DNA of 64,000 bases from an uncultured Candidatus Sumerlaeota bacterium (lineage in GTDB: Bacteria > Sumerlaeota > Sumerlaeia > UBA8349). Below are positions 1-58,530 of the stretch, one piece after another. Position numbers and translations under genes: made by a program. Under the pieces are notes generated by a model that did no database searches, was not told the DNA's origin, and saw only the letters and a list, made by a program, of their open reading frames with translations. The DNA lies in the NCBI GenBank assembly GCA_942493245.1, contig OW818685.1:3452389-3516388 (forward strand), read 5' to 3'. Within the stretch, counting starts at the first letter, position 1; every line of letters starts with the position of its first letter.

Positions 1-322
1 GCCTGGCTCGACCAGTGCGCGAAAACCGACAAAGCGCTCGACACAATCACTGATCCGACCCTGCGCGCACAGGTACGCACGTACCTGAAAGAACAACGAA
101 AAATTCAGGCGTTTCTGAATCTCCCCCTGGAATGGGACAACTTGAGGTTCCCCCCGTCCATTGGACAGGGATCGGGTAGGATTAAGGTGTGACGCCTGAC
201 GACCCGATCATGTTTTTTTCTCGCTTATTTGACGGAAGGGGCGGTCGGGGTCGGTTCCCGCGTCCCGTCCCCTTCGCGTCGTTTTGAGGGCATCTTTAAC
301 CTACCATTCGGCGCTGATCGGA

Positions 323-1180
323 TCAATTCATTTGGTCAGCGAAATCTCTGTTTTGCTGCTTCGCAGTCTCAAAGCCGTTCGCCCAGTGAACCTCCTGGGG
401 CGTGCGGTAGCCAAGCGACTGATGCGGCCGCTGCGTGTTGTAGAATCGGAAGTACGCCCCGAGCGCCTTGTCCGCAGCGGGCGGGTCCGCATACTCGCAC
501 AGGTACACCTCCTCGTACTTCACGCTGCGCCACAGGCGTTCCGTGAAGATGTTGTCGAAGCAGCGGCCCCGCCCGTCCATGCTGATCCGGATGCCGCTCT
601 CCTCCAGCCGTTTCGTGAACGCCCCGCTGGTGAACTGCACGCCCTGGTCGGTGTTGAAAATATCGGGACACCCCAGACGCAGCGCCTCGTCGAGAGTCTC
701 GACGCAAAACGAGGTGTCGAGCGAGTTCGAGAGCCGCCACGCCAGCACGTAACGGCTGAACCAGTCGATCACCGCCGTCAGGTAGAGAAAACCGCCCGCC
801 AGGCCGATGTACGTGATGTCGGACGCCCAGACCTGGTTGGGGCGCACGATCGGCAGATCCCGCAGCAAATACGGGTACTTCTTGTGCTGCGGCGCGCTGT
901 GGCTCAGGCCCTTGCGCGGCGCCACGGCCCGCAACCCCATCACCCGCATGAGCCGCTCGACCCGCTTGTGGTTGATCGGCTGGCCGAGGGTGCGCGAGAG
1001 GTGCGCGGTCATCTTGGGCGAACCGTAGAACGGAAAGCAGGTGTAGATCTCGTCGATCCGGCGCATCAGTTCCAACTCCTGAGGGTCGCGTTCCACCGGC
1101 TGGTAGTAGTAGGTCGAGCGCGGCAGACCGAGCAGGGCGCACTGGCGCGAAATGGCCAGTTCCCCGTGCCCCGGCTCCAC
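323..1180 (-). CDS. IS3-family transposase OrfB (DDE integrase core); open frame extends upstream to 1222
   Basis: 285 aa containing the rve/integrase-core region (..WASDITYIGLAGGFLYLTAVIDWFSRYVLAWRLS..., ..NTDQGVQFTS..., ..YNTQRPHQSLGYRTPQE..). The frame is open from the stop at 1223-1225 that overlaps the A-run. Confidence 0.85.
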   Translation of the reverse strand: MEPGHGELAISRQCALLGLPRSTYYYQPVERDPQELELMRRIDEIYTCFPFYGSPKMTAHLSRTLGQPINHKRVERLMRVMGLRAVAPRKGLSHSAPQHKKYPYLLRDLPIVRPNQVWASDITYIGLAGGFLYLTAVIDWFSRYVLAWRLSNSLDTSFCVETLDEALRLGCPDIFNTDQGVQFTSGAFTKRLEESGIRISMDGRGRCFDNIFTERLWRSVKYEEVYLCEYADPPAADKALGAYFRFYNTQRPHQSLGYRTPQEVHWANGFETAKQQNRDFADQMN

Positions 1181-1202
1181 CAGCGCCTGCGCCTGGCCGG
1201 GG

Positions 1203-1493
1203 TCAAGCGCCGCACTTTTTTTTTAGCCAGTCGAGTTCCACCTTGAGCCGTCCGATCTGCTCGTAGAGTTGGCTGGTCTCTTCCGCCTCCTTTCCCGGCC
1301 GCTTGCGCCGGTCGGCGAAAGCCCCGCTCAGGGATTCCACCGCCTGCTTCTTCCACATCACCACCTGGTGGGGATGGATGCCGCGCTCGCTGGCAATCTC
1401 ATTGATCGTCCGCTTGCCGCGAATTGCCTCCAGTGCCACCTCCGCCTTGAAAGACGCACTGAAACGTCGCCTCTTTTCGCTCATTTTCCCCAC
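1203..1493 (-). CDS. IS3-family transposase OrfA (HTH DNA-binding)
   Basis: 96 aa, MGKMSEKRRRFSASFKAEVALEAIRGKRTINEIASERGIHPHQVVMWKKQ..., a classic IS3 OrfA helix-turn-helix with a leucine-zipper-like C-terminus; ends WLKKKCGA* directly after the A9 tract. Confidence 0.85.
   Translation of the reverse strand: MGKMSEKRRRFSASFKAEVALEAIRGKRTINEIASERGIHPHQVVMWKKQAVESLSGAFADRRKRPGKEAEETSQLYEQIGRLKVELDWLKKKCGA
1213..1226 (-). promoter_or_regulatory. A9 homopolymer recoding site at the orfA/orfB junction (transcriptional slippage or +1 frameshift candidate)
   Basis: Minus-strand sequence CTGGCT-A9-GTGCGG (plus-strand T9 at 1216-1224). OrfB lies in the +1 frame relative to OrfA, so canonical -1 ribosomal frameshifting would not join them; an mRNA with one fewer A gives an in-frame OrfAB fusion. 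Confidence 0.55.
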
Positions 1494-1620
1494 TCCTTCC
1501 TGGACACAAGCCTAACAGAATACCACCTTAAAGGCCTGTCCAGTTTTCGGGGGGAACTTCAACTACACGGACCTCAACCTGGGCGAATATACTAAATATT
1601 TAAGGGTCTCAAATTCAATC

Positions 1621-2209: not shown

Positions 2210-3793
2210 TCACCACCCGAACGTCACCAGACTCCGTCCGGGTAAAGTGTATTGAAAAAACTTGTCACCGGTCTGTACCTGGAACACCTTCTCCGCTTCG
2301 TTCCGATTGAACACGGCGAGGGTGGTCTTCCCCTCCGGCGCGGCGAAGGCCACCACATCCAGATCCTTATTCGGACCGTCCCCTTCGACAGAAGCGGCCA
2401 CGCGGCGCGAACCGGGCTGCGCCGCGCGGGACATTTGGGCCATTCCGTAGAACTCGCGCTCGAATTTGACCTCCTGCCAGGTGTCCGACCGGACCGTCAC
2501 CACCCCGATCCCGGCCGAATCGTCGCGCAGGGTCGGACCGTACTTCTGGTCGAGCGCCAGATTCCACTCCTGGATCGCCTGACACCCGTTCTGCGGCCCA
2601 CCCATCCAGCTCATCGCCATGCGCGAGCGCACATTGCCCCACCAGCCGCCGCGTTTCTTTCCCCACGCCGAGATTTCGGTGCAGATGATCATCTTGTCGG
2701 GGAATTTCTGATGGATCGCCTGATAGGCCTTCTTCATCGCCTCGGCGCCGCCGGAGTAACAGTGCCACGCGCTCCCGGCGATATAGCGCCCCGCCTCGGG
2801 GTCCTGGAAAATCTGCGTCACGCTGGCCACCGGGTCCATCTTGGCGTCGCCACCGAGTACCTTGCGGTCGCCGGGGTGCAGTTCCCAGTTGTGGTCGTGG
2901 ACAAAGATTTTCGTCTTGAGCCCCTTGGCCGCGAGTTTCGGCCCGAGCAGTCGGACCAAGCGGATCTGGTCCGCCTCGTCCAGGCGCATGCAGGGGTAGC
3001 GCAACAGGTCCGTCTGCGGTTCGTTCTGGAGCGTGACGGCCCAGATTTCCACCCCGGCGGCCTGGTACTGTTCGATGAACTTCACGAAATAGTCGGCGTA
3101 CACCTCGAAGCACTCGGGCTTGAGTTTGTTGACACCCCCGGCGGCTTTTTCCGCCTCGGTGATCCCCACCAGTTTCCCGTGGGTCTTCATCCAGGCGGGC
3201 GCGCTCCACGGAGACCCCATGATGCGAATGGTCGGGTTCAACTTCAACGCGTCCTTCAACGCCGGAATGATCTGTTTCCGGTCGTGGTCGATCGAGAACT
3301 TGCTCAGATCGGGGGACGGTTCATCGCAATAGGTGTAGTACGCCGGAGCGGCGGTGAAGTCCGACGCTCCCATCGGAATGCGGATGAAGCTGAACCCCGC
3401 GCCCTCGGTGGGAGAGAACAACCGCTTCATCGTGTACTCGTAGAGCGTCGGATTCTTCTCCTTCAGGTTCATGAACAGGTCCGCAGAGGCGTCGGTCATC
3501 GCCGCGCCGTAACCGAACATTTCCTGTTCCGCCGCGTTGCGGTTCACCGAGATTTTCAGAGGAACTCCCGGGTCCGCCGGAAGGAGCGGCGTGGAACCGG
3601 CACGCAACAAGGTGTATTCGTCATCCTGATGGACGTCGTACTTGCCCGCGCCGCCCCCGATCCTGGCCTCCTTCGCGTCGCCATCCGGGAAACGCGTGAG
3701 CAACGTCGCCACCTCCGCGCTCCACGCGGGCACCAGGAACATTCCCACTAAAAGGCACAAAAAACTCATCCGTTGAATCGAACGCATCGCCAC
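2210..3793 (-). CDS. glycoside hydrolase family 30 (glucosylceramidase-like), secreted
   Basis: 527 aa with an N-terminal signal peptide (MSFLCLLVGMFLVPAWSA) and GH30-like stretches including ..IMGSPWSAPAWMK.. and ..VTLQNEP... Confidence 0.8.
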   Translation of the reverse strand: MAMRSIQRMSFLCLLVGMFLVPAWSAEVATLLTRFPDGDAKEARIGGGAGKYDVHQDDEYTLLRAGSTPLLPADPGVPLKISVNRNAAEQEMFGYGAAMTDASADLFMNLKEKNPTLYEYTMKRLFSPTEGAGFSFIRIPMGASDFTAAPAYYTYCDEPSPDLSKFSIDHDRKQIIPALKDALKLNPTIRIMGSPWSAPAWMKTHGKLVGITEAEKAAGGVNKLKPECFEVYADYFVKFIEQYQAAGVEIWAVTLQNEPQTDLLRYPCMRLDEADQIRLVRLLGPKLAAKGLKTKIFVHDHNWELHPGDRKVLGGDAKMDPVASVTQIFQDPEAGRYIAGSAWHCYSGGAEAMKKAYQAIHQKFPDKMIICTEISAWGKKRGGWWGNVRSRMAMSWMGGPQNGCQAIQEWNLALDQKYGPTLRDDSAGIGVVTVRSDTWQEVKFEREFYGMAQMSRAAQPGSRRVAASVEGDGPNKDLDVVAFAAPEGKTTLAVFNRNEAEKVFQVQTGDKFFQYTLPGRSLVTFGW

Positions 3794-5975: not shown

Positions 5976-6243
5976 CGTGCCGCCCTCCTTCTATTGCCTG
6001 GACTTGCAGCCCTTCCAATTGCTTTCGGACCCGAATTGTACCGGTCCCGGAGGGTTTCAGACAAGTCAATAATCCGATATTGTGCGCCGGTATCCCCTCG
6101 CCACCCAATGGTTCTTAATCCTGTTGTTTCTTTGCTTGACATATCGAGTCCCCTATCTCAATATACCAGAATAGTATAGGTCGTTCCTATTGCCTCCGAA
6201 ATTTTTTCCAACCATCCGAAACAACGAGAAACGAATCATAACA

Positions 6244-9200
6244 ATGGACTCCCAACAAGACGGCATGGCGATAGCGCACGAACTGATCCGCGAAGCGAAA
6301 AAAACCCACGCCCTCTTTCTGGACCTGGGAAACCTCGGATTGACAGAACTCCCCCGTGAACTGGAAGAACTCGTCTGGCTGGAAGGGCTGAATCTGTCTG
6401 TGCTCTTTCGTGACATCGTTCATATGAAATTGGTGGTATCCATAAACGAGTATAGTCCAAATCGGATCAAGTGTCTACCATCATGGATCAGAAAACTCCA
6501 ATGCCTGCGTCACCTATTCCTAACAGATTTAGAGAAACTCAATAATATGGAGGAACTTCAAAGTCTTGAGGTGCTCAGTTTAACTGATTGCAATGATTTG
6601 ACCAATGTTGACAATCTGCAAGATCTAATCCGCCTTCAAGCACTGGACTTAAGCCGCTGTTCGTGTCTAACTAATGTAGACGGACTACAAAAACTAAATG
6701 GACTCAAAGTATTGGACCTATCTGTTTGTTCAAAATTAAAAAGTATCAATTGCTTGCAAAAAATGAACAAACTTCAAGTCCTAAACTTGGATGGTTGTTG
6801 GAGTTTGGAAAATATCTCTTGTCAGCCACAACCATCCCAACTTCGGTTACTAAATGCAAGAGGATGCTGCAACCTGCCCCATATTAACATTCTGCAGGGA
6901 TTGAACCACCTTCAGACGCTGGACTTAAGTGGGTGCGGGAACCTAGCCCAAGTCAATGTGCAGGGGCTGAGGGAACTTCAGTCACTATATTTAAGCGGGT
7001 GTGAGAATCTGACACAGATCAGAGGCCTGCAGGGGTTGAACCACCTTCAGACGCTGGACTTAGGTGGGTGCGAAAACATAGCCCGAGTCAACGTGCAAGG
7101 GCTTAGACAACTTCAGTCGCTGAGATTAAGAAGGTGTCTAAGCCTGAGCCTGGTCAATATACAAGGACTGAACAAACTCCGATCACTGGACCTATGTGCC
7201 TGTACTAGTTTGACCTCTCTCCCAGATTCTGTACTATATATGCCCCAATTAGAGGAACTTTTTCTTTGTGAAAGTAGTATCTATGACATTCCCCGCCCCT
7301 TGCTTGGTCGCGATTACTATGAAAATTGTCTACCGGGTATTCGGGCGCATTTCCACGATCTGGAACAGGGGGAAGAGCTGGACCGGGAGGTCAAACTGAT
7401 CCTGCTGGGGAATGGGTGGGTGGGGAAGACGTCGGTGTGCCGCCGGTTGATCGAGAACCGGTTTGACAAACATGAAAAATCCACCCACGGCGTGCGGTTC
7501 TGGCCGTGGCGTCTGAAGGAAAAGGAGGGCGAGGAACGCGCCATCACGGTCAATGTGTGGGATTTCGGCGGGCAGGACATTTATTACGGGACGCACGCGT
7601 TGTTTCACCAGGGCCGCGCCGTCTTTGTGATTGTGTGGGACGCGGAAACGGAAGGAACCGACTTCACACAAGATGAAGAGACCCAACTGACCCACCGGAA
7701 CTACCCGGTCCAGTACTGGCTCGACTACGTCCAGTCGGTCTCTCCCGGCAGCCCGGTCGTGATCGTTCAGAACAAATGCGCCTCGGATTTCGACTACCGC
7801 GCCGTCTCACTCACGATCAAAAATTCGAGTCAACACCCTCTGCAATGCCGGTTTTGCGCTGAGGAAGCGGACGATGCCCGAAACAACCGCCAACTCCTCG
7901 TGCATTACCTGGAAGAGGCGGTCGAGAAAGTCCTGGGGCACAAAGGCACCCAACGGATTGGTGTGGGTCGCTGGGGGGTGAAACAGGAACTGCGCCGGTT
8001 GTTGAACGAGGAAAAGACGCAAACCCTTTCGATCGAACGGTATCGTAAAATCTGCAGGGACCACCACCTCGACAAGGCGGGCGCCGACGCGCTGCTCGAG
8101 TTTCTGCACCACAGCGGAACCGTTTATCACCAGGCAAACCTGTTTGACAACGCGATCATCCTCGACCTGCGCTGGGTGTGCGACGCCATTTACACCCTGC
8201 TGGACCGGCACAAAGGGTGTTATCACGATATTCGGGAAAGAAACGGTCAATTCACCGGAAACCTCCTGAACCGGCTGGTCTGGCGCGAGGCGGGTTACCA
8301 ACTGTCCGAACAGGATCTGTTTATCGAAATGATGCAGTCGTGTAAAATCTGTTTCAAGTTAGGTGAAAATGATCGCAAGGAAGCCGTCTATCTGGCGCCG
8401 GATCTGACGCCCAACTACACAGACGTCGCGGGGGGATGTTATTGGGAGGAAAAAGGCGAAACATTCTACTGGCGCTATGATCACGGCTTTCTGGGTCCGA
8501 ACGTCCTCCGGCAGGCAATGATCGAAATCGGCAAAACGTATCGGCAATCGGCCTGTTACTGGCAGAACGGCTTTTACCTGCCGCTCAATGCCCTCCAGAG
8601 CCGCGCCCGCGTCACTGCGGAATACGGCCAGAACGGCAACCCGTCCCCCGGGCACATCACCCTGGCCATTCAGGGCGCAGGCAATCCCCAGAACAAGATG
8701 GAAATGCTGGGCATCCTGCGGAACGCCTTTGAAGAAGACCGTCGGTATCGGTGGCGCGAAAGTAATCGCAAAGATTGGGGGTTGGAACAAAAAAAGACCG
8801 GCATCCGGTATCAGGTTTCCCTGGATGGGGAGCACTGGGTGGATCTGGAAGCGTTGAAAACCATGCGCGACCTCGGGAACCCCCATGTGGCCTCTTTCGG
8901 GGACAACGACGCCCCACCCGTTCAACAGGAAGTCGCCGATTACCTCCATTACCTCGACCATCTGGACACCCCGTCCCGGTTCGACGGGGAGACACCCCGT
9001 CCACTCCCCCTCGCAAAAAACCAAGACACCTTGACTCCCATTACAGACGAAAAGGAAACGAAACCCATGAGCCCAGCCAATCCCCCGAAGGTTTTTATCA
9101 GTTACAGTCATGAAACCGCAGAACACGATGAACGTATCCGCAAATTGGCGGATCAGTTGTGTGAAAAGGATGGGATTGAGGTAGAACTCGACCAGTACCA

Positions 9201-9594
9201 TCAACGACCGTCCCAGGGATGGCCACGCTGGTGTGAGGAACAACTGGAACCGGAGAATTCAGACTTTGTCCTGGTCATCTGTACGCAAACCTACCTCGAT
9301 CGAATAAAAGGTAAAGTTCGAGCCGACGAAGGACACGGGGTCTATTGGGAAGGGTCTCTTCTCTACGATTACATCTATGATTCGAAAAGCAATACTCGTT
9401 TCATTCCGGTTCTGTTGAAAGGGGGAAAAGAAGACCATATTCCGCGCCCGATAAAAAGTTCCGGATGGTACAAGATTGAAAAGTTCGATCTTTCGGATCC
9501 GGGTTATAACGCGCTTTATGGGGTCCTGACCAATCAACCGGAGGTCAAAAAACCTCCCAGAGGCACGATTAAACGTCTTCCCGCGAAACCATGA
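6244..9594 (+). CDS. ROCO-family multidomain protein: cysteine-containing LRR - Roc GTPase - COR - C-terminal SEFIR/TIR-like domain
   Basis: ATG at 6244 (the ORF track opens at a TTG at 6190, in frame). About 14 LRRs of the LxxLxLSGCxNL type (nt about 6300-7250). Roc GTPase with G1 GNGWVGKTS (nt 7390 onward), G3 DFGGQ and G4 NKCASD. A COR-like region of about 350 aa follows. The C-terminal domain (nt 9085-9510) begins PKVFISYSHETAEHDERIRKLADQL and contains NTRFIPVLLKGGKEDHIP, which closely resembles SEFIR domains (compare Act1 RKVFITYSMD ... FRFIPVLFPNAKKEHVP). Confidence 0.85.
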   Translation: MDSQQDGMAIAHELIREAKKTHALFLDLGNLGLTELPRELEELVWLEGLNLSVLFRDIVHMKLVVSINEYSPNRIKCLPSWIRKLQCLRHLFLTDLEKLNNMEELQSLEVLSLTDCNDLTNVDNLQDLIRLQALDLSRCSCLTNVDGLQKLNGLKVLDLSVCSKLKSINCLQKMNKLQVLNLDGCWSLENISCQPQPSQLRLLNARGCCNLPHINILQGLNHLQTLDLSGCGNLAQVNVQGLRELQSLYLSGCENLTQIRGLQGLNHLQTLDLGGCENIARVNVQGLRQLQSLRLRRCLSLSLVNIQGLNKLRSLDLCACTSLTSLPDSVLYMPQLEELFLCESSIYDIPRPLLGRDYYENCLPGIRAHFHDLEQGEELDREVKLILLGNGWVGKTSVCRRLIENRFDKHEKSTHGVRFWPWRLKEKEGEERAITVNVWDFGGQDIYYGTHALFHQGRAVFVIVWDAETEGTDFTQDEETQLTHRNYPVQYWLDYVQSVSPGSPVVIVQNKCASDFDYRAVSLTIKNSSQHPLQCRFCAEEADDARNNRQLLVHYLEEAVEKVLGHKGTQRIGVGRWGVKQELRRLLNEEKTQTLSIERYRKICRDHHLDKAGADALLEFLHHSGTVYHQANLFDNAIILDLRWVCDAIYTLLDRHKGCYHDIRERNGQFTGNLLNRLVWREAGYQLSEQDLFIEMMQSCKICFKLGENDRKEAVYLAPDLTPNYTDVAGGCYWEEKGETFYWRYDHGFLGPNVLRQAMIEIGKTYRQSACYWQNGFYLPLNALQSRARVTAEYGQNGNPSPGHITLAIQGAGNPQNKMEMLGILRNAFEEDRRYRWRESNRKDWGLEQKKTGIRYQVSLDGEHWVDLEALKTMRDLGNPHVASFGDNDAPPVQQEVADYLHYLDHLDTPSRFDGETPRPLPLAKNQDTLTPITDEKETKPMSPANPPKVFISYSHETAEHDERIRKLADQLCEKDGIEVELDQYHQRPSQGWPRWCEEQLEPENSDFVLVICTQTYLDRIKGKVRADEGHGVYWEGSLLYDYIYDSKSNTRFIPVLLKGGKEDHIPRPIKSSGWYKIEKFDLSDPGYNALYGVLTNQPEVKKPPRGTIKRLPAKP
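6897..7130 (+). repeat. intragenic tandem duplication of a two-LRR unit (about 135 bp, two copies)
   Basis: GGATTGAACCACCTTCAGACGCTGGACTTAAGTGGGTGCGGGAACCTAGCCCAAGTCAATGTGCAGGGGCTGAGGGAACTTCAG... from about 6899 recurs at about 7034 with roughly 85% identity by eye. Confidence 0.6.
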
Positions 9595-17308: not shown

Positions 17309-17490
17309 CTACTATATTCGACTCGGGGGGGGAGATGCCAGAAGATTTTCAGGTTGTTTTCAATGACAGTCTTTCTTGCCAAGGGGGTTTTCCTGCTTGC
17401 GCCCGCCAAGTGGCTTGCATACAATAATCGGGCAGGCCGTGCGGGCTGTTTTTTCTCAAGAGTCAGGGGCCTTTCGCCCCCGAGGTTTTA

Positions 17491-31505: not shown

Positions 31506-32318
31506 TTATTTCCTGACTTTGGATTTGGCCTTCGACGCGGGTTTCTTGACCCCCACACTGTCGGCTTTCGTTTCGGCGGCGGGAGCCGCCTTTGGACTTT
31601 CCACTGCGGCTGGCTCTCCAGTCGGAACCGTATTTTCCGTGTTTGTCGTCGAATTTTCTATTATAAAGTTGATCGGACCGGTGCAATGGATTTTTCGGAG
31701 GGATTGGTTCGTCTTGAACCCCTTGGCTTCGATTACGACCTTCCCCCCCCCGTCGGCGGGCATGCTCAACTCGACATCGCCGCCCGCGCTCACAATTGAA
31801 ACCGTTGTCTCCTCGTCCGCTCCCACCTGAGCGACGCCCGTGGGAACATTGAGGTAAAACAGACTGGGCGCCTTGATGGTTTTTCCATTGGCGTTGATGT
31901 CCACTCCCCCCTCGAGGTAAACGTCGCCACTGCGGGGACGCGCTCCCGTCATGTACTCCGGCACCACCTGCTTTTTCGTGGGACTCTTGGTGTAAAAAAC
32001 GCCAGAACCACTGCGAAACAACATCTCCTGTGTTCCGGAGGTAAAGTGCATCCCCACTTGATTGAGTGTCGCCAAGTTCTGGGCCAAGTCCATCGTGGCC
32101 GACGTGGCCTGCAGCACATTGGTGGTTTTCAGTCCGGTGAACGTCCGAACCTCTAACCCTTTGATCTCAAACGCGCCCATTTGTTCCCGTTCATCTTTTT
32201 TTTCCTGCATCGCCGGCTCTTCCTGGGTCCGGCACGCCCCCAGAGAAAACGCCAGAGCGCCCGCCATCAGGCAGGCCCAGCCGTATTTCCAGAAACTCAG
32301 TTGTCTCATGTTACACAT
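31506..32318 (-). CDS. LptC-like/OstA-like lipoprotein
   Basis: Lipobox-like N-terminus (LAFSLGAC), OstA-like fold region, Lys/Ala-rich C-terminal tail; position between the acyltransferase and lptA-like genes. Confidence 0.45.
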   Translation of the reverse strand: MCNMRQLSFWKYGWACLMAGALAFSLGACRTQEEPAMQEKKDEREQMGAFEIKGLEVRTFTGLKTTNVLQATSATMDLAQNLATLNQVGMHFTSGTQEMLFRSGSGVFYTKSPTKKQVVPEYMTGARPRSGDVYLEGGVDINANGKTIKAPSLFYLNVPTGVAQVGADEETTVSIVSAGGDVELSMPADGGGKVVIEAKGFKTNQSLRKIHCTGPINFIIENSTTNTENTVPTGEPAAVESPKAAPAAETKADSVGVKKPASKAKSKVRK

Positions 32319-44496: not shown

Positions 44497-44761
44497 CTCT
44501 TCCAATCTCGAATTCAGGTCTCTGTACTCTCCCACACTTGAGGGAATTCTACCGTACTTCCCGGAAATGGGCTATTCCAATTCACGCGGCATTCGGCGAT
44601 TTCTCTGGCAACACGGCGGGTTCTGAACTATGACATATAGAGAGACGGGGGAAAACCGGGGGACACGGATGTAACGTGTGGGGGGCCACAGTTCCCGCGG
44701 TCAGAACATTCGTTTCGCGGTGGGGACACCGGCGTTACACAAAAGAAGGGTGGTAAAAAGC

Positions 44762-46708
44762 ATGGACAGGCCTGACGGGTTTGACAAGGTTCTGGGACAC
44801 GAACGGGGAAGCCTGGTGCTGCTGCATCCGACTTCTTTACCCGATCCACCGGGACGCGCCTACGGCGTGGGGGAACTCGGCTCGCAGGCCTTCCGGTTCA
44901 TCGAGTTTCTGACCGAAACCGGCACTCTGGCGTGGCAAACGCTCCCGCTTGGCCACACGGGGTTCAAGGACTCTCCCTACCAGACCTTTTCGCGTTTCGC
45001 GGGATCGCCGCTGATGATCAGCGTCGAACGCCTTTTCGAGGCGGGCGATCTGAGTCCCGAACAACACGACGCGTATTGTGATCGCGCCCGGGCGCTGCCC
45101 GCGGACCGCGTGGACTATGGCTGGCTCTTCGAACAGAAACTCGGAAGCGGCCCCGAGGCGGGACACGCCGTCCTGCGCCAGGCGTTCGACAACTTCTCGC
45201 GACGCTCACCTGAAGACGCCCGGGTTCAGGCATTCGAAGTGTTTCGCCACGCCCAAACCCATCGGGCGGGCGGGTGGCTCGAAGACTATGCGGAATTCAT
45301 GGCGCTGAAGGAACGCCACGGGCAGCGCTGCTGGAGCGAGTGGCCCGCGCCCTGGCACAACGCGCGCGAATGGCGCCCCGATCGCGAGGCCCTGCTGGCG
45401 CAGAACCCCGATCTGGCCACGGGCATTCGGTTCTTTGCCTACCTGCAATTCGTGTTCTTCGAGCAGTGGAACGCCGTGCAAGATTTCGCCCGGCAGAAGG
45501 GGCGCATTCTGGTCGGCGATGCCCCCTGGTATGTTGGCTACGACAGCGCGGACGTGTGGGCGCGGCGCCAGGCGGTGTTCGACCTGGACTGCACCGGTCG
45601 CCCCCTGCGCGTGGCGGGCGTCCCCCCGGACGCCTTCAGCGAAACCGGGCAACTCTGGGGCAATCCGCTCTACAACTGGCACAGCCCCGAAGCGGAGCTG
45701 TGGTGGGTCGAGGCGGTGGATTTCATGCTCGACATGGTGGACGTGCTGCGCCTGGACCACTTCCGCGCGCTCGACACCTACTGGGTCGTGTCGCGCCGCT
45801 GGGTCGAAAGAAAAGGAACAGCCGAGAAAGGGTACTGGCAAAAAGGCCCGGGGGGCCGTGTGCTTCAGGCCATTCAGCGGCGACTCGAAGAGAAGGGCCG
45901 CATCGCCCCCGGGGGGAACCTGCCCCTGGTGGCCGAAGATCTGGGTTGTTTCGACTCGGTCTTCCCGTTCATCGGGGATTACCCGGAACACACCGCGCGC
46001 CATCAGCGCTACTCGATCTCGCGCGAGTTCCGGCGGATGCTGCGCGAGGGCCACACCGACGTCCTGCCGGTACTGGATCGCGAAACCGGGCGCTACTGCA
46101 CGCGCAAAGGCACCGACGTCCACCTCGAGGACTTCCGCCTGCCCCGCATGATCGTTCTGCAGTTCGAGTTTGATGGATGCCGGTTCCTCTGGCCCGAAAA
46201 TGTCGCCAGAAGCGCCATCACTTACACCGGAACCCACGACAACGACACATCGGTGGGGTGGTTCCGCAGTCTCACGGAACGCGAAATCGGATGGGCCGGC
46301 GAAAAGAAACGGCACGAAAGCCCCCCCCTCCTGGCCGAACGCATCCGCCTGGCCCTGCTCCCGCAGGAAGAGCGGGACGCGGCGCTGGCCGCCCTGCGCC
46401 CGACGGAGGGCCACCAGCCGGAAGGCGGGGGGGAAAATGCGGAAATAGAAGCAATCCCGTCCCCCACCTTCGAAGACGCGGTGGAAGCGGTTCTCAATCT
46501 CCTGCGGGTGGCATGGAAAACTCCCTCCTGCCTCGCGGGCGCGCAGATGCAGGACCTCCTGTTGCTCGACACCTCGGCGCGCATGAACCTGCCCGGCGAC
46601 GCCCACGGCCAGTGGTGGGCCTGGCGCATGACATCCGAACAAGCCTCCCATCCGGAAGTCGCCGACCGCCTGCGGCGGCTCAACGAAGAGTTCGACCGGT
46701 GGGAATGA
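44762..46708 (+). CDS. malQ: 4-alpha-glucanotransferase (amylomaltase, GH77)
   Basis: LLHPTSLP N-terminal motif and amylomaltase-like core. Start at ATG 44762. Confidence 0.85.
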   Translation: MDRPDGFDKVLGHERGSLVLLHPTSLPDPPGRAYGVGELGSQAFRFIEFLTETGTLAWQTLPLGHTGFKDSPYQTFSRFAGSPLMISVERLFEAGDLSPEQHDAYCDRARALPADRVDYGWLFEQKLGSGPEAGHAVLRQAFDNFSRRSPEDARVQAFEVFRHAQTHRAGGWLEDYAEFMALKERHGQRCWSEWPAPWHNAREWRPDREALLAQNPDLATGIRFFAYLQFVFFEQWNAVQDFARQKGRILVGDAPWYVGYDSADVWARRQAVFDLDCTGRPLRVAGVPPDAFSETGQLWGNPLYNWHSPEAELWWVEAVDFMLDMVDVLRLDHFRALDTYWVVSRRWVERKGTAEKGYWQKGPGGRVLQAIQRRLEEKGRIAPGGNLPLVAEDLGCFDSVFPFIGDYPEHTARHQRYSISREFRRMLREGHTDVLPVLDRETGRYCTRKGTDVHLEDFRLPRMIVLQFEFDGCRFLWPENVARSAITYTGTHDNDTSVGWFRSLTEREIGWAGEKKRHESPPLLAERIRLALLPQEERDAALAALRPTEGHQPEGGGENAEIEAIPSPTFEDAVEAVLNLLRVAWKTPSCLAGAQMQDLLLLDTSARMNLPGDAHGQWWAWRMTSEQASHPEVADRLRRLNEEFDRWE

Positions 46709-56262: not shown

Positions 56263-58530
56263 ATGAGACTGAAAACCCCGATCTATTTCCTGGCCCTCGC
56301 GATTCTGACGATCGCGGCCACCCTTTCACAGGCCGAGTGGAAACCTGTGGAAGGCCACATCATGACCCGTTGGGCCAAAGACGTGTCACCCGACAAAGTA
56401 CTTCCCGAGTATCCGCGGCCCCAGATGGTCCGTAAGGAATGGAAGAACCTCAACGGCCTGTGGGACTACGCCATCGTCGAAAAAGACGCGCCCAAACCCG
56501 CCCAGTTCCAGGGCAGCATCCTGGTCCCCTTCCCCGTCGAGTCCGCCCTCTCGGGCGTCAAGAAGGAAGTCGGTGAGAAGAACCGCCTGTGGTACAGCCG
56601 CACATTCACGGTTCCCAAAGAATGGAAAGGCCAGCGCGTCCTGTTGCACTTCGACGCGGTGGACTGGGACGCCAAGGTCTGGGTGAACGACAAGGAAGTC
56701 GCCAGCCACCAGGGCGGATACGATCCCTTCTCGATCGATATCACCGACGCTCTGGGTGACAAAGCCGAACAGACGCTGGTTGTCTCGGTCTGGGACCCAA
56801 GCGACAAAGGCCCGCAGGCCCGCGGCAAACAGGTGCAGAAGCCGGAAGGAATCTGGTACACCCCCGTCACCGGTATCTGGCAGACGGTGTGGCTGGAACC
56901 GGTTCCCGCAGCCAGCATCCAGAGCCTCAAGATCGTTCCGGATATTGACAAGGGCCTCGTGACCATCTCCGCACAGACCACGGGCGCCAAGGACAGCGAC
57001 GAAGTCGCCATCGAAGTGCTGGACGGCGCGAACGCCGTCGTGTCGGGCCAAGCCGCTCCCAACAAAGCCGCCGAGTTGAAGATCGCCAACGCGAAACTCT
57101 GGTCCGTGGACACCCCGTTCCTGTACAACCTGCGCATCACCCTAAAGCAGGACGGCAAGGCCGTGGATTCCGTGGACAGTTACTTCGGCATGCGGAAAAT
57201 CTCGCTCCAGAAGGACGAGAAGGGGGTCCAGCGCCTCGCCCTCAACAACAAGATCCTCTTCCAGTACGGCCCGCTCGATCAGGGCTGGTGGCCCGATGGG
57301 CTTTACACCCCCCCGACGGACGAAGCCCTCAAGTTCGACATCGAGATCACCAAAAAGATGGGCTTCAACATGATCCGCAAGCACGTCAAGGTGGAATCGG
57401 CCCGCTGGTACACCCACTGCGACCAGTTGGGGATGCTCGTGTGGCAGGACATGCCGAGCGGCAACGTGAGCGACGCCCGGAAGAAAAACGAGGAGCAAGG
57501 CAAGAAGGCCGCCGCGCAATTCGAACTCGAACTCAAACGCATGATTGACGCGTTCCACAACTACCCGTCCATCATCATGTGGGTCCCCTTCAACGAAGGC
57601 TGGGGCCAGTACGACACCGAGCGCGTCGTCGAACTGGTGAAGAAGCAAGACCCCACGCGCCTGGTCAACAACGCCAGCGGCTGGACCGACATGCACGTGG
57701 GCGATGTGCGCGACCACCACGACTATCCCGGCGCCGGGCAACCGCAGGTGGAAGCCAACCGCGCCGACGTACAGGGTGAGTTCGGCGGCCTGGGACTGCC
57801 CGTCAAAGACCACGTGTGGAAAGACGACCCGAAAAACTGGGGCTATCGCACGTTCAAGGACATGGAAAGCCTCGCGGCCGACTACGAGCGCCTGATCCGT
57901 CAGGTCCACGTGTTCGCCGGCCAGGGCATGTCCGCCGCCGTGTACACGCAGACCACCGACGTGGAAGTCGAAGTCAACGGCCTCATGACCTACGACCGCG
58001 AAGTCATGAAATTCAAGCCCGAGTGGCTGGCCCAGGTCAACAACCGTCTCTATCAGACGCCGCCCGTGGTAACCCCCCTCGTTCACACCTCGGAGAAATC
58101 CGACGTGACGTGGCGCTACACCACGGCGAAGCCCGCCGACGGGTGGGAAAAGGCCGACTTCAAAGACGCCGACTGGAAAGAAGGCAAGGGCGTGCTGGGT
58201 ACCAAAGACACCCCCGGAGCCGCCGTGCGTACCGTCTGGAACACGCCCGACATCTGGGCGCGCCGCGTCGTCGAATTGCCCGACCTGGCGGGCAAGACGG
58301 TCGAACTCCTGCTCCTGCACGATGAGGACGCTGAAGTCTATATCAACGGCGTTCTGGCGGCGGAAGTCAAAGGGTTCAACAGCGCCTACGATTCCGTGGC
58401 CATCAGCGCCGAGGCCCAGAAGACCCTCAAGGCCGGCAAAAACGTCATCGCTATCCATTGCAACCAGAAAACGGGCGGTCAGAGCATTGACGCCGGTCTG
58501 GCCGCAATCGAGTATCCGAAAGCGAAATAA
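56263..58530 (+). CDS. glycoside hydrolase family 2 protein, secreted
   Basis: Signal peptide, GH2 sugar-binding region and TIM-barrel region (..WSVDTPFLYNL.., ..NMIRKHVKVE.., ..MWVPFNEGWGQ..). Ribosome-binding site AAAGGAG upstream of the ATG. Confidence 0.8.
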   Translation: MRLKTPIYFLALAILTIAATLSQAEWKPVEGHIMTRWAKDVSPDKVLPEYPRPQMVRKEWKNLNGLWDYAIVEKDAPKPAQFQGSILVPFPVESALSGVKKEVGEKNRLWYSRTFTVPKEWKGQRVLLHFDAVDWDAKVWVNDKEVASHQGGYDPFSIDITDALGDKAEQTLVVSVWDPSDKGPQARGKQVQKPEGIWYTPVTGIWQTVWLEPVPAASIQSLKIVPDIDKGLVTISAQTTGAKDSDEVAIEVLDGANAVVSGQAAPNKAAELKIANAKLWSVDTPFLYNLRITLKQDGKAVDSVDSYFGMRKISLQKDEKGVQRLALNNKILFQYGPLDQGWWPDGLYTPPTDEALKFDIEITKKMGFNMIRKHVKVESARWYTHCDQLGMLVWQDMPSGNVSDARKKNEEQGKKAAAQFELELKRMIDAFHNYPSIIMWVPFNEGWGQYDTERVVELVKKQDPTRLVNNASGWTDMHVGDVRDHHDYPGAGQPQVEANRADVQGEFGGLGLPVKDHVWKDDPKNWGYRTFKDMESLAADYERLIRQVHVFAGQGMSAAVYTQTTDVEVEVNGLMTYDREVMKFKPEWLAQVNNRLYQTPPVVTPLVHTSEKSDVTWRYTTAKPADGWEKADFKDADWKEGKGVLGTKDTPGAAVRTVWNTPDIWARRVVELPDLAGKTVELLLLHDEDAEVYINGVLAAEVKGFNSAYDSVAISAEAQKTLKAGKNVIAIHCNQKTGGQSIDAGLAAIEYPKAK

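Follow-up and report, generated by a model that had tools for sequence, protein, structure and literature searches.

A candidate transcriptional-slippage transposase in an IS3-family insertion sequence from an uncultured Candidatus Sumerlaeota bacterium

An intact IS3-family element interrupts an open reading frame

We analysed a 64,000-nucleotide (64-kb) stretch of DNA from an uncultured Candidatus Sumerlaeota bacterium (assembly GCA_942493245.1, contig OW818685.1, positions 3,452,389 to 3,516,388 of the forward strand), referred to below as the window. Near its beginning, on the minus strand, lies a complete insertion sequence (IS) of the IS3 family, 1419 bp long (143-1561), whose two open reading frames (ORFs), OrfA and OrfB, overlap out of frame at a run of nine adenines (A9). 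An earlier note, made from the letters of this stretch alone, had described the element as a possible slippage-dependent transposase. Here, we describe the element and its relatives and consider how the full transposase is probably made.

The boundaries of the element are set by a pair of inverted repeats (IRs) and by flanking ACT repeats, and the same ends are found in L165, a Logan contig that is the closest relative for which DNA is available. The IR search returned a 28-nucleotide (nt) pair at 142-169 and 1535-1562 that is 82% complementary. Within this pair, the OrfA-proximal terminal repeat (1535-1561, minus strand; 5'-TGAAGTTCCCCCCGAAAACTGGACAGG) has 27 nt identical in L165 and gives the element its TG start, and the OrfB-distal repeat (143-169, minus strand; ...CCTGTCCAATGGACGGGGGGAACCTCA) provides the terminal CA. 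The element termini thus read TGAAG... and ...CCTCA. Copies of the target-site duplication ACT flank the element at 140-142 and 1562-1564.

The IS interrupts a host ORF on the plus strand, with one part upstream (1-142) and the other downstream (1565-2073). Removing the IS together with one ACT in silico joins 1-142 to 1565-2073, giving a single open frame of 216 amino acids (aa) that is continuous over the join and extends to the window edge. This suggests insertion into a coding sequence. The reconstructed 216-aa host frame has no Pfam match. The region 1560-2200 looks richer in AT than the remainder of the window.

All of the IS3 features that were examined are present: a DDE core, two overlapping ORFs, TG...CA inverted repeats, a length within about 1.2-1.55 kb and a duplication of 3-4 bp. 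Within the IS3 family, the window element, which is intact, belongs to the IS1447/IS120-like group. No second copy was found in the 64-kb window. The source genome does encode a second OrfB (P0001), 97% identical and likewise called separately as a 285-aa ORF, and a further protein record (P0127), from a 5,996,854-bp NCBI contig that is evidently the source, is identical to the window OrfB.

Between the OrfB stop and the end of the IS is a non-coding tail of about 180 nt (143-322, minus strand), with its counterpart at 1531-1722 of L165. Blocks of this tail are nearly identical between the two elements (e.g., GACGCGAAGGGG..CGGGACGCG..AACCGAC.CCGACCGCCCCTTCCGTC), and the tail is better conserved against L165 than the adjoining end of OrfB. 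It could be a transposase-binding site or serve some other end function.

OrfA and OrfB overlap at an A9 run with a +1 offset

OrfA (1203-1484, minus strand) matches the helix-turn-helix (HTH) domain HTH_Tnp_1 (Pfam PF01527, E = 8.7e-12) and carries leucine heptads at L73, L80 and L87. It most likely starts at the ATG at 1484, preceded at 7 nt by a GGAG, and then encodes a protein of 93 aa ending in ...DWLKKKCGA. In the coding orientation (minus strand), the junction is GAC TGG CTA AAA AAA AAG TGC GGC GCT TGA. The run appears as T9 on the plus strand (1216-1224) and is the sole A/T run of at least nine bases in the window, which has a GC content of 59%; relatives have a homologous run. After the AAG codon there are three sense codons and then the OrfA stop (1203-1205).

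The OrfB frame (323-1222, minus strand) is open between a TAA at 1225-1223, overlapping the first bases of the run, and a stop at 323-325. Its codons begin one base downstream of those of OrfA, which places OrfB at +1. It contains HTH_21, rve (PF00665, E = 6.4e-24) and rve_3 (PF13683) domains. The canonical IS3 layout, in which OrfB lies at -1, is thus not the one found here. The -1 frame after the run (1066-1215, minus strand) is open for only 51 codons and ends at a stop at 1066, with no DDE or other transposase domain en route. In each of these respects (the A9 tract, the early OrfA stop, the +1 OrfB frame open from the overlapping TAA and the unproductive -1 frame), the arrangement is as the earlier note had read it.

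Deleting one A in silico yields an OrfA-OrfB fusion of 386 aa (...DWLKKSAALDPGQAQALVEPGHGELAIS... / ...DWLKKSAALDPGQ...), exactly the in-frame product that had been written down in that note. The fusion matches the NCBIfam IS3 family transposase model NF033516 over essentially its full length, from model position 2 to the last, 369, scoring 335.6 bits where the cutoff is 160. The DDE triad falls at D222, D279 and E315 in fusion numbering, with spacings of 57 and 36 residues, in keeping with the D-(~60)-D-(~35)-E pattern of the family. Together, the model match and this spacing bear out the original assignment to the IS3 family.

The codons at the junction are unusual for this element. Its GC content at third codon positions is 86%, and outside the run AAA is used for 1 of 17 lysines and CTA for none of 35 leucines. 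Because the junction nevertheless uses CTA AAA AAA AAG, the A run is maintained against the codon preference of the element, which argues that the run in the window copy is selected.

A9 with a +1 OrfB is the commonest state among related loci

The survey covered 160 related loci, drawn equally (80 each) from species-representative genomes and metagenomes, with OrfB identities to the window element mostly between 50 and 70%. Reading frames and the junction run were scored in the 140 loci that have both ORFs. The combination seen in the window, A9 with OrfB at +1, is present in 84 loci. A +1 OrfB is also found after A8 (17 loci), A10 (4 loci), A7 (1 locus) and A6 (1 locus). OrfB is at -1 after A9 in 5 loci, after A8 in 5 and after A7 in 3, and the two ORFs are in frame, with A7 or A8, in 3 more. 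The 17 other loci have a GAT TTT TTA motif, a -1 OrfB and a downstream inverted repeat. No locus among the 140 combines A10 with a -1 OrfB. Counted by run length alone, the homologous site has A9 in 89 loci and A8 or A10 in 28.

The position of the run is constant, at the end of a conserved ...IG.LK.E..WLKKK zipper motif. Intact OrfB sequences form 93 clusters at 95% identity, of which 55 have A9/+1 as their majority state and only 2 contain mixed run or frame states; at 70% identity, A9/+1 is in the majority in 25 of 41 clusters. Judged by record titles, the hosts of A9/+1 loci include Saccharimonadales, Latescibacterota, Parcubacteria, Roizmanbacteria, Planctomycetales, Thiotrichaceae and other metagenome-assembled genomes (MAGs), in addition to many metagenomes. 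The first A of the run falls on codon position 1 of OrfA in 44 of the A9/+1 loci and on codon position 3 in a further 34. Conservation therefore applies to run length and the +1 offset but not to codon phase, which fits the prediction of a mechanism acting at the level of the polymerase.

A Latescibacterota chromosome (OZ252228.1) has seven copies of an A9/+1 element, all seven with this layout, with 98.5-100% core identity and unrelated flanks (L009 partly different). These seven dispersed copies show that A9/+1 elements multiply within genomes. An element on a Desulfosarcina BuS5 plasmid is A10/+1, with a coding sequence length of 1120 nt; PGAP annotates +1 joins in this family.

A sister IS3 group lacks the A run (L029, L033-L036, L041-L047, L051, L054-L056, L058, L060 and L065). 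Its members instead read GAT TTT TTA, place OrfB at -1 and have a conserved inverted repeat (GCGCTCGG...CGAGCGC) downstream of the motif. In sequence, this resembles a ribosomal frameshift site of the U_UUU_UUA type, complete with a stem-loop, in the place occupied elsewhere by the A run.

Both ORFs are under purifying selection

L165 is about 80% identical in nucleotide sequence to the window IS; it shares the 27-nt terminal repeat and the A9/+1 layout exactly, and its target duplication is TTA. Its junction reads GTC GAC TGG TTA AAA AAA AAG TTC AGC GCT TGA, so that substitutions between the two elements flank the run on both sides and none falls inside it. For OrfA, the synonymous divergence (dS) is 0.70 and the ratio of nonsynonymous to synonymous divergence (dN/dS) is 0.13; for OrfB, these values are 0.88 and 0.21. 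With ratios this low, both ORFs have therefore been under purifying selection throughout that divergence, during which A9/+1 was retained. The -1 frame is 51 codons long in both elements and has a dN/dS of 0.57, a value that is little informative because this frame overlaps OrfB.

Among protein records, an OrfA from the same 90% cluster (P0123), found in Joint Genome Institute (JGI) and Logan assemblies, has the same ending, ...LKKKCGA. L164 is a natural A8 allele in which the ORFs are in frame, with the junction LKKS predicted for A8.

Comparison with known elements

The closest mechanistic precedent is IS1447 (ISfinder IS120) of Clostridium thermocellum, which has A9 at the end of OrfA and needs a +1 change to make OrfAB (Liu et al. 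2018, PMC6211511). In that study, cDNA clones of IS1447 had A8 in 9 of 52 cases and A10 in 8 of 52, genomic clones had A9 in 30 of 30, and the fusion product required at least seven As. The group of IS1447-like elements was defined there by >35% identity, >50% coverage, 7-9 consecutive As at the OrfA 3' end and an OrfB that requires a +1 frame change, and was described as Firmicutes-enriched. The OrfAB of the window element is 41% identical to that of IS1447 over its full length (377 aligned positions, E = 6e-104). It is 52% identical, and ungapped through the junction, to that of an Aminomonas paucivorans element listed under +1 transcriptional slippage in Table S3 of the same paper, whose junction is nearly the same (GAG CTT GAC TGG CTC AAAAAAAAA GCT G).

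IS1447 and the window IS both belong to the IS3 family, carry A9 within ...(D/A)WLKKK at the end of OrfA, have OrfB at +1, need the loss of one A from the transcript for the fusion, and are flanked by 3-bp direct repeats. They differ at their ends: IS1447 has TA ends and IRs of 48-49 bp, whereas the window IS has TG ends and IRs of about 27 nt. A stem-loop is predicted beside the run of IS1447, whereas none stands out in the window copy. Further, the IS1447-like group was described as enriched in Firmicutes, whereas the window IS and its A9/+1 relatives come from many other phyla. By its IR ends and by its nearest relatives, which are non-Firmicutes MAGs, the window IS would fit the wider IS1447-like set rather than the narrow Firmicutes subgroup.

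The canonical IS3 elements IS911, IS3 and IS150, together with ISPpu29, share with the window IS an OrfA with HTH and leucine zipper, an OrfB with the DDE domain, TG...CA ends, a 3-bp duplication, a similar size and a recoding site at the end of the zipper. In those elements, however, OrfB lies at -1 and is reached by -1 ribosomal frameshifting on A_AAA_AAG, whereas in the window IS it lies at +1 and the -1 frame leads nowhere. ISPpu29 is the nearest named IS found, with a transposase about 54% identical, the junction CTT AAA AAA AAG, an A8 run and OrfB at -1. Two copies of ISPpu29 were retrieved from Pseudomonas aeruginosa plasmids (L161 and L162). One of these has A6 in place of A8, which puts OrfA and OrfB in frame; this copy is a naturally occurring allele, shortened by 2 nt, of an IS that uses canonical -1 frameshifting.

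Runs of A in the overlap of OrfA and OrfB have been described before. Baranov et al. 2005 (PMC1088944) reported conserved 9A runs in this overlap in IS elements and took it as the criterion for programmed slippage that homologues keep both the run and the ORF layout. In the window IS and its relatives, both are conserved: a homopolymer of at least 8-9 A/T is kept along with the overlapping ORFs. The elements treated there (from Deinococcus radiodurans, Nostoc, Mesorhizobium loti and others) have 8-10 As in the overlap, as the window IS does, and the likeness is one of layout. According to Antonov et al. 2013 (PMC3711429), both ribosomal frameshifting and transcriptional realignment are found among IS3 members.

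Two further cases are cited in these papers. An IS630-family element of Roseiflexus, as cited in PMC6211511, resembles the window IS in that polymerase realignment restores the transposase frame. It slips on T5C5 with the aid of an upstream hairpin; it thus belongs to another IS family and uses a heteropolymeric motif, and dependence on a hairpin is unsupported for the window copy. The dnaX gene of Thermus thermophilus, as cited in PMC3711429, shows A9 transcriptional slippage with mixed transcripts and two products from one gene. Unlike the window IS, it is a cellular replication gene in which slippage yields the shorter product.

Folding of the RNA upstream of the run

An upstream hairpin that aids slippage has been proposed for IS1447 and for the Roseiflexus IS630 element (PMC6211511). 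In the window copy, an imperfect and weak candidate RNA hairpin ends at the base before the run (1225-1261, minus strand; minimum free energy -8.3 kcal/mol). We compared the folding of 46 A9/+1 representatives with synonymous recodings drawn from the codon usage of each element. The 14 codons (42 nt) before the run fold more stably than their recodings, with a mean z of -1.03 and 78% of values below zero (Wilcoxon p = 1.5e-5, which is optimistic, as the sequences are related). The preceding 14 codons of the same representatives show no such effect (mean z = -0.01). An Rfam scan of the window found no RNA family, and a promoter and terminator scan found nothing at the junction. We regard the upstream hairpin as a tendency of the family that is unsupported for the window copy.

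Probable mechanism of transposase synthesis

The intact anatomy, the full-length fusion, the conservation of the run together with the +1 frame, and the purifying selection on both ORFs are observed directly. On this basis, and with a probability that we put at roughly 80%, the window IS makes its full transposase by transcriptional slippage on the A9 run. Normal A9 transcripts would give only OrfA, the short DNA-binding protein. RNA polymerase would occasionally realign the nascent RNA on its template at the run, producing A8 transcripts and, less often, A11 transcripts, and either of these would fuse OrfA to the +1-frame OrfB to give the 386-aa DDE transposase OrfAB (...DWLKK-SAALD...). A10 transcripts, or a -1 slip by the ribosome, would lead into the dead-end frame. 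Run length and frame offset would then jointly hold the transposase at a low, fixed share of expression. We consider the route through A8 transcripts most likely because of the homology to IS1447, the likeness to the junction in Table S3 of PMC6211511, the conservation of run and layout that Baranov et al. describe, and the use of transcriptional realignment by IS3 members. The slippage-dependent transposase proposed in the earlier note is thus supported by the 84 of 140 loci with A9/+1, by L165, by codon usage and by the IS1447 precedent.

Several observations weigh against this interpretation. The placing of the frame change in transcription rather than translation draws on IS1447, a homologue 41% identical, and not on RNA or protein of the host. 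The junction (CTA AAA AAA AAG) contains an in-phase A_AAA_AAG heptamer, so ribosomes may slip there too. Run length varies in the family, and the two closest metagenome relatives are A8/+1 and A9/-1. A protein from an Anaerolineaceae MAG (P0122, HEX2980395.1), about 93% identical, is annotated as a 387-aa fusion with the junction LKKKSAALD. This annotation implies an A10 run with a -1 join, or an in-frame A11, in that assembly; either run length may differ even between very close relatives or the assembly may contain an error. With respect to RNA structure, the 14 codons before the run in the window copy fold at -8.1 kcal/mol compared with -10.7 kcal/mol for synonymous recodings (z = +1.05), and the fold of the 106-nt junction is not significantly different from shuffled sequences (z = -1.13). 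Similarly, RNAalifold found no consensus structure upstream, downstream or across the run in the 46 A9/+1 representatives.

A change of frame on the ribosome, by which Lys-tRNA slips by +1 (or -2) or slides along the poly(A) so that OrfAB is made from unedited A9 mRNA, seems to us quite unlikely. Such a shift is conceivable because Lys-tRNA can re-pair in any frame on the run and the A_AAA_AAG heptamer is in phase. Poly-A sites can change frame at the level of either transcription or translation (PMC3711429), and the same clade uses -1 ribosomal frameshifting, clearly so in ISPpu29 (A8/-1) and, as its motif and inverted repeat (GCGCTCGG...CGAGCGC) suggest, in the GAT_TTT_TTA group. However, a +1 shift needs about 4 slippery bases and a -1 shift 7, whereas the family keeps 8-10 As, mostly 9, in two codon phases. 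A -1 slip at the heptamer would reach only the dead-end frame. Known +1 sites such as that of prfB have a slow codon or a stop after the slip site, and no in-phase slow codon or stop follows the run in the window IS. Further, A8 transcripts were observed directly in IS1447. The retention of run length in two codon phases and the IS1447 cDNA favour the polymerase over the ribosome. Taken more broadly, to include a fusion made on the ribosome by +1, -2 or nine-A sliding as well as a contribution from both levels, the ribosomal route is unlikely. If true, the common A9/+1 layout of environmental IS3 elements would represent natural, widespread use of poly(A) ribosome sliding in gene expression.

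The earlier note had also held open a sequencing error or an inactivated copy, and the comparative evidence prefers its slippage proposal to both. Homopolymers are error-prone and the source is one 6.0-Mb contig, so the true run might be A10, giving the canonical -1 layout, or A8, giving a simple in-frame gene. Some relatives are indeed A8 and in frame (L164, L166, L080 and L155) or A8-A9 with OrfB at -1, and the annotation of the Anaerolineaceae protein implies another run length in a close relative. A9/+1 is nevertheless the modal state: its 84 loci come from assemblies made independently, many of which were built by SPAdes or MEGAHIT from short reads. The same layout is present in L165, which comes from a separate Logan assembly, and the same OrfA C terminus in P0123 from JGI and Logan. 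The second copy in the source contig (97% identical) also has a separate 285-aa OrfB, and the A10/-1 layout occurs in 0 of 140 loci. Taken together, these observations make a homopolymer error highly improbable. Least probable of all is a dead copy, in which a frameshift mutation has abolished transposase synthesis. In its favour, OrfA does not share a frame with OrfB and the canonical -1 route is not available either. However, the two ORFs, the two IRs and the target duplication are all undamaged, and the host frame into which the element is inserted is otherwise open. The layout is ancestral, being common to L165 across a divergence with dN/dS of 0.13-0.21, and random frameshifts would not recur at one site and with one offset in 84 loci. 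Heritable switching in the DNA itself is very unlikely as well. Here, replication slippage would generate rare A8 cells whose constitutively fused transposase drives transposition. Natural A8 in-frame alleles exist in related elements (L164, junction LKKS), runs from A7 to A10 occur in the family, and replication slippage on such runs is possible according to Baranov et al. (PMC1088944). Such switching is rare, however, with in-frame ORFs in 3 of 140 loci and mixed states in 2 of the 93 clusters formed at 95% identity. On the Latescibacterota chromosome, A9 is retained in each of the seven copies, and the genomic clones of IS1447 were A9 in 30 of 30 cases while its cDNA was heterogeneous.

Implications for annotation and distribution

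Transcriptional slippage is already published for this IS3 subgroup, in IS1447, and the finding made here is real but not new. The one new point, from the surveyed sequences, is that A9/+1 appears to prevail over all other states in a large set of IS3 elements from mostly uncultured bacteria outside the Firmicutes. This suggests that A9/+1 is not a peculiarity of Firmicutes, as it is shared by candidate-phyla bacteria, Latescibacterota, Planctomycetota and others, and it represents a modest extension of the published work. For annotation, OrfA and OrfB are best treated as one transposase gene with a programmed frame change, and neither as a pseudogene nor as a sequencing error.

Other features of the window

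Four other homopolymers of 8-9 bases are present in the window: G8 (17325-17332), C9 (31743-31751), T8 (32196-32203) and C8 (46321-46328). In local six-frame translations, the C9, T8 and C8 runs each lie within at least one open frame and show no visible frame break. The C8 run is inside a 4-alpha-glucanotransferase ORF (44678-46708), and the G8 run is just upstream of the start of a CTP-synthase-like ORF on the minus strand.

Several large ORFs of the window have no NCBIfam match. Its other contents include a 527-aa ORF (2210-3793) and a 1134-aa leucine-rich-repeat protein (6190-9594). The region from 2210 to 62295 is rich in carbohydrate-active enzymes, and a beta-galactosidase/glucuronidase-like protein is encoded at 56263-58530.

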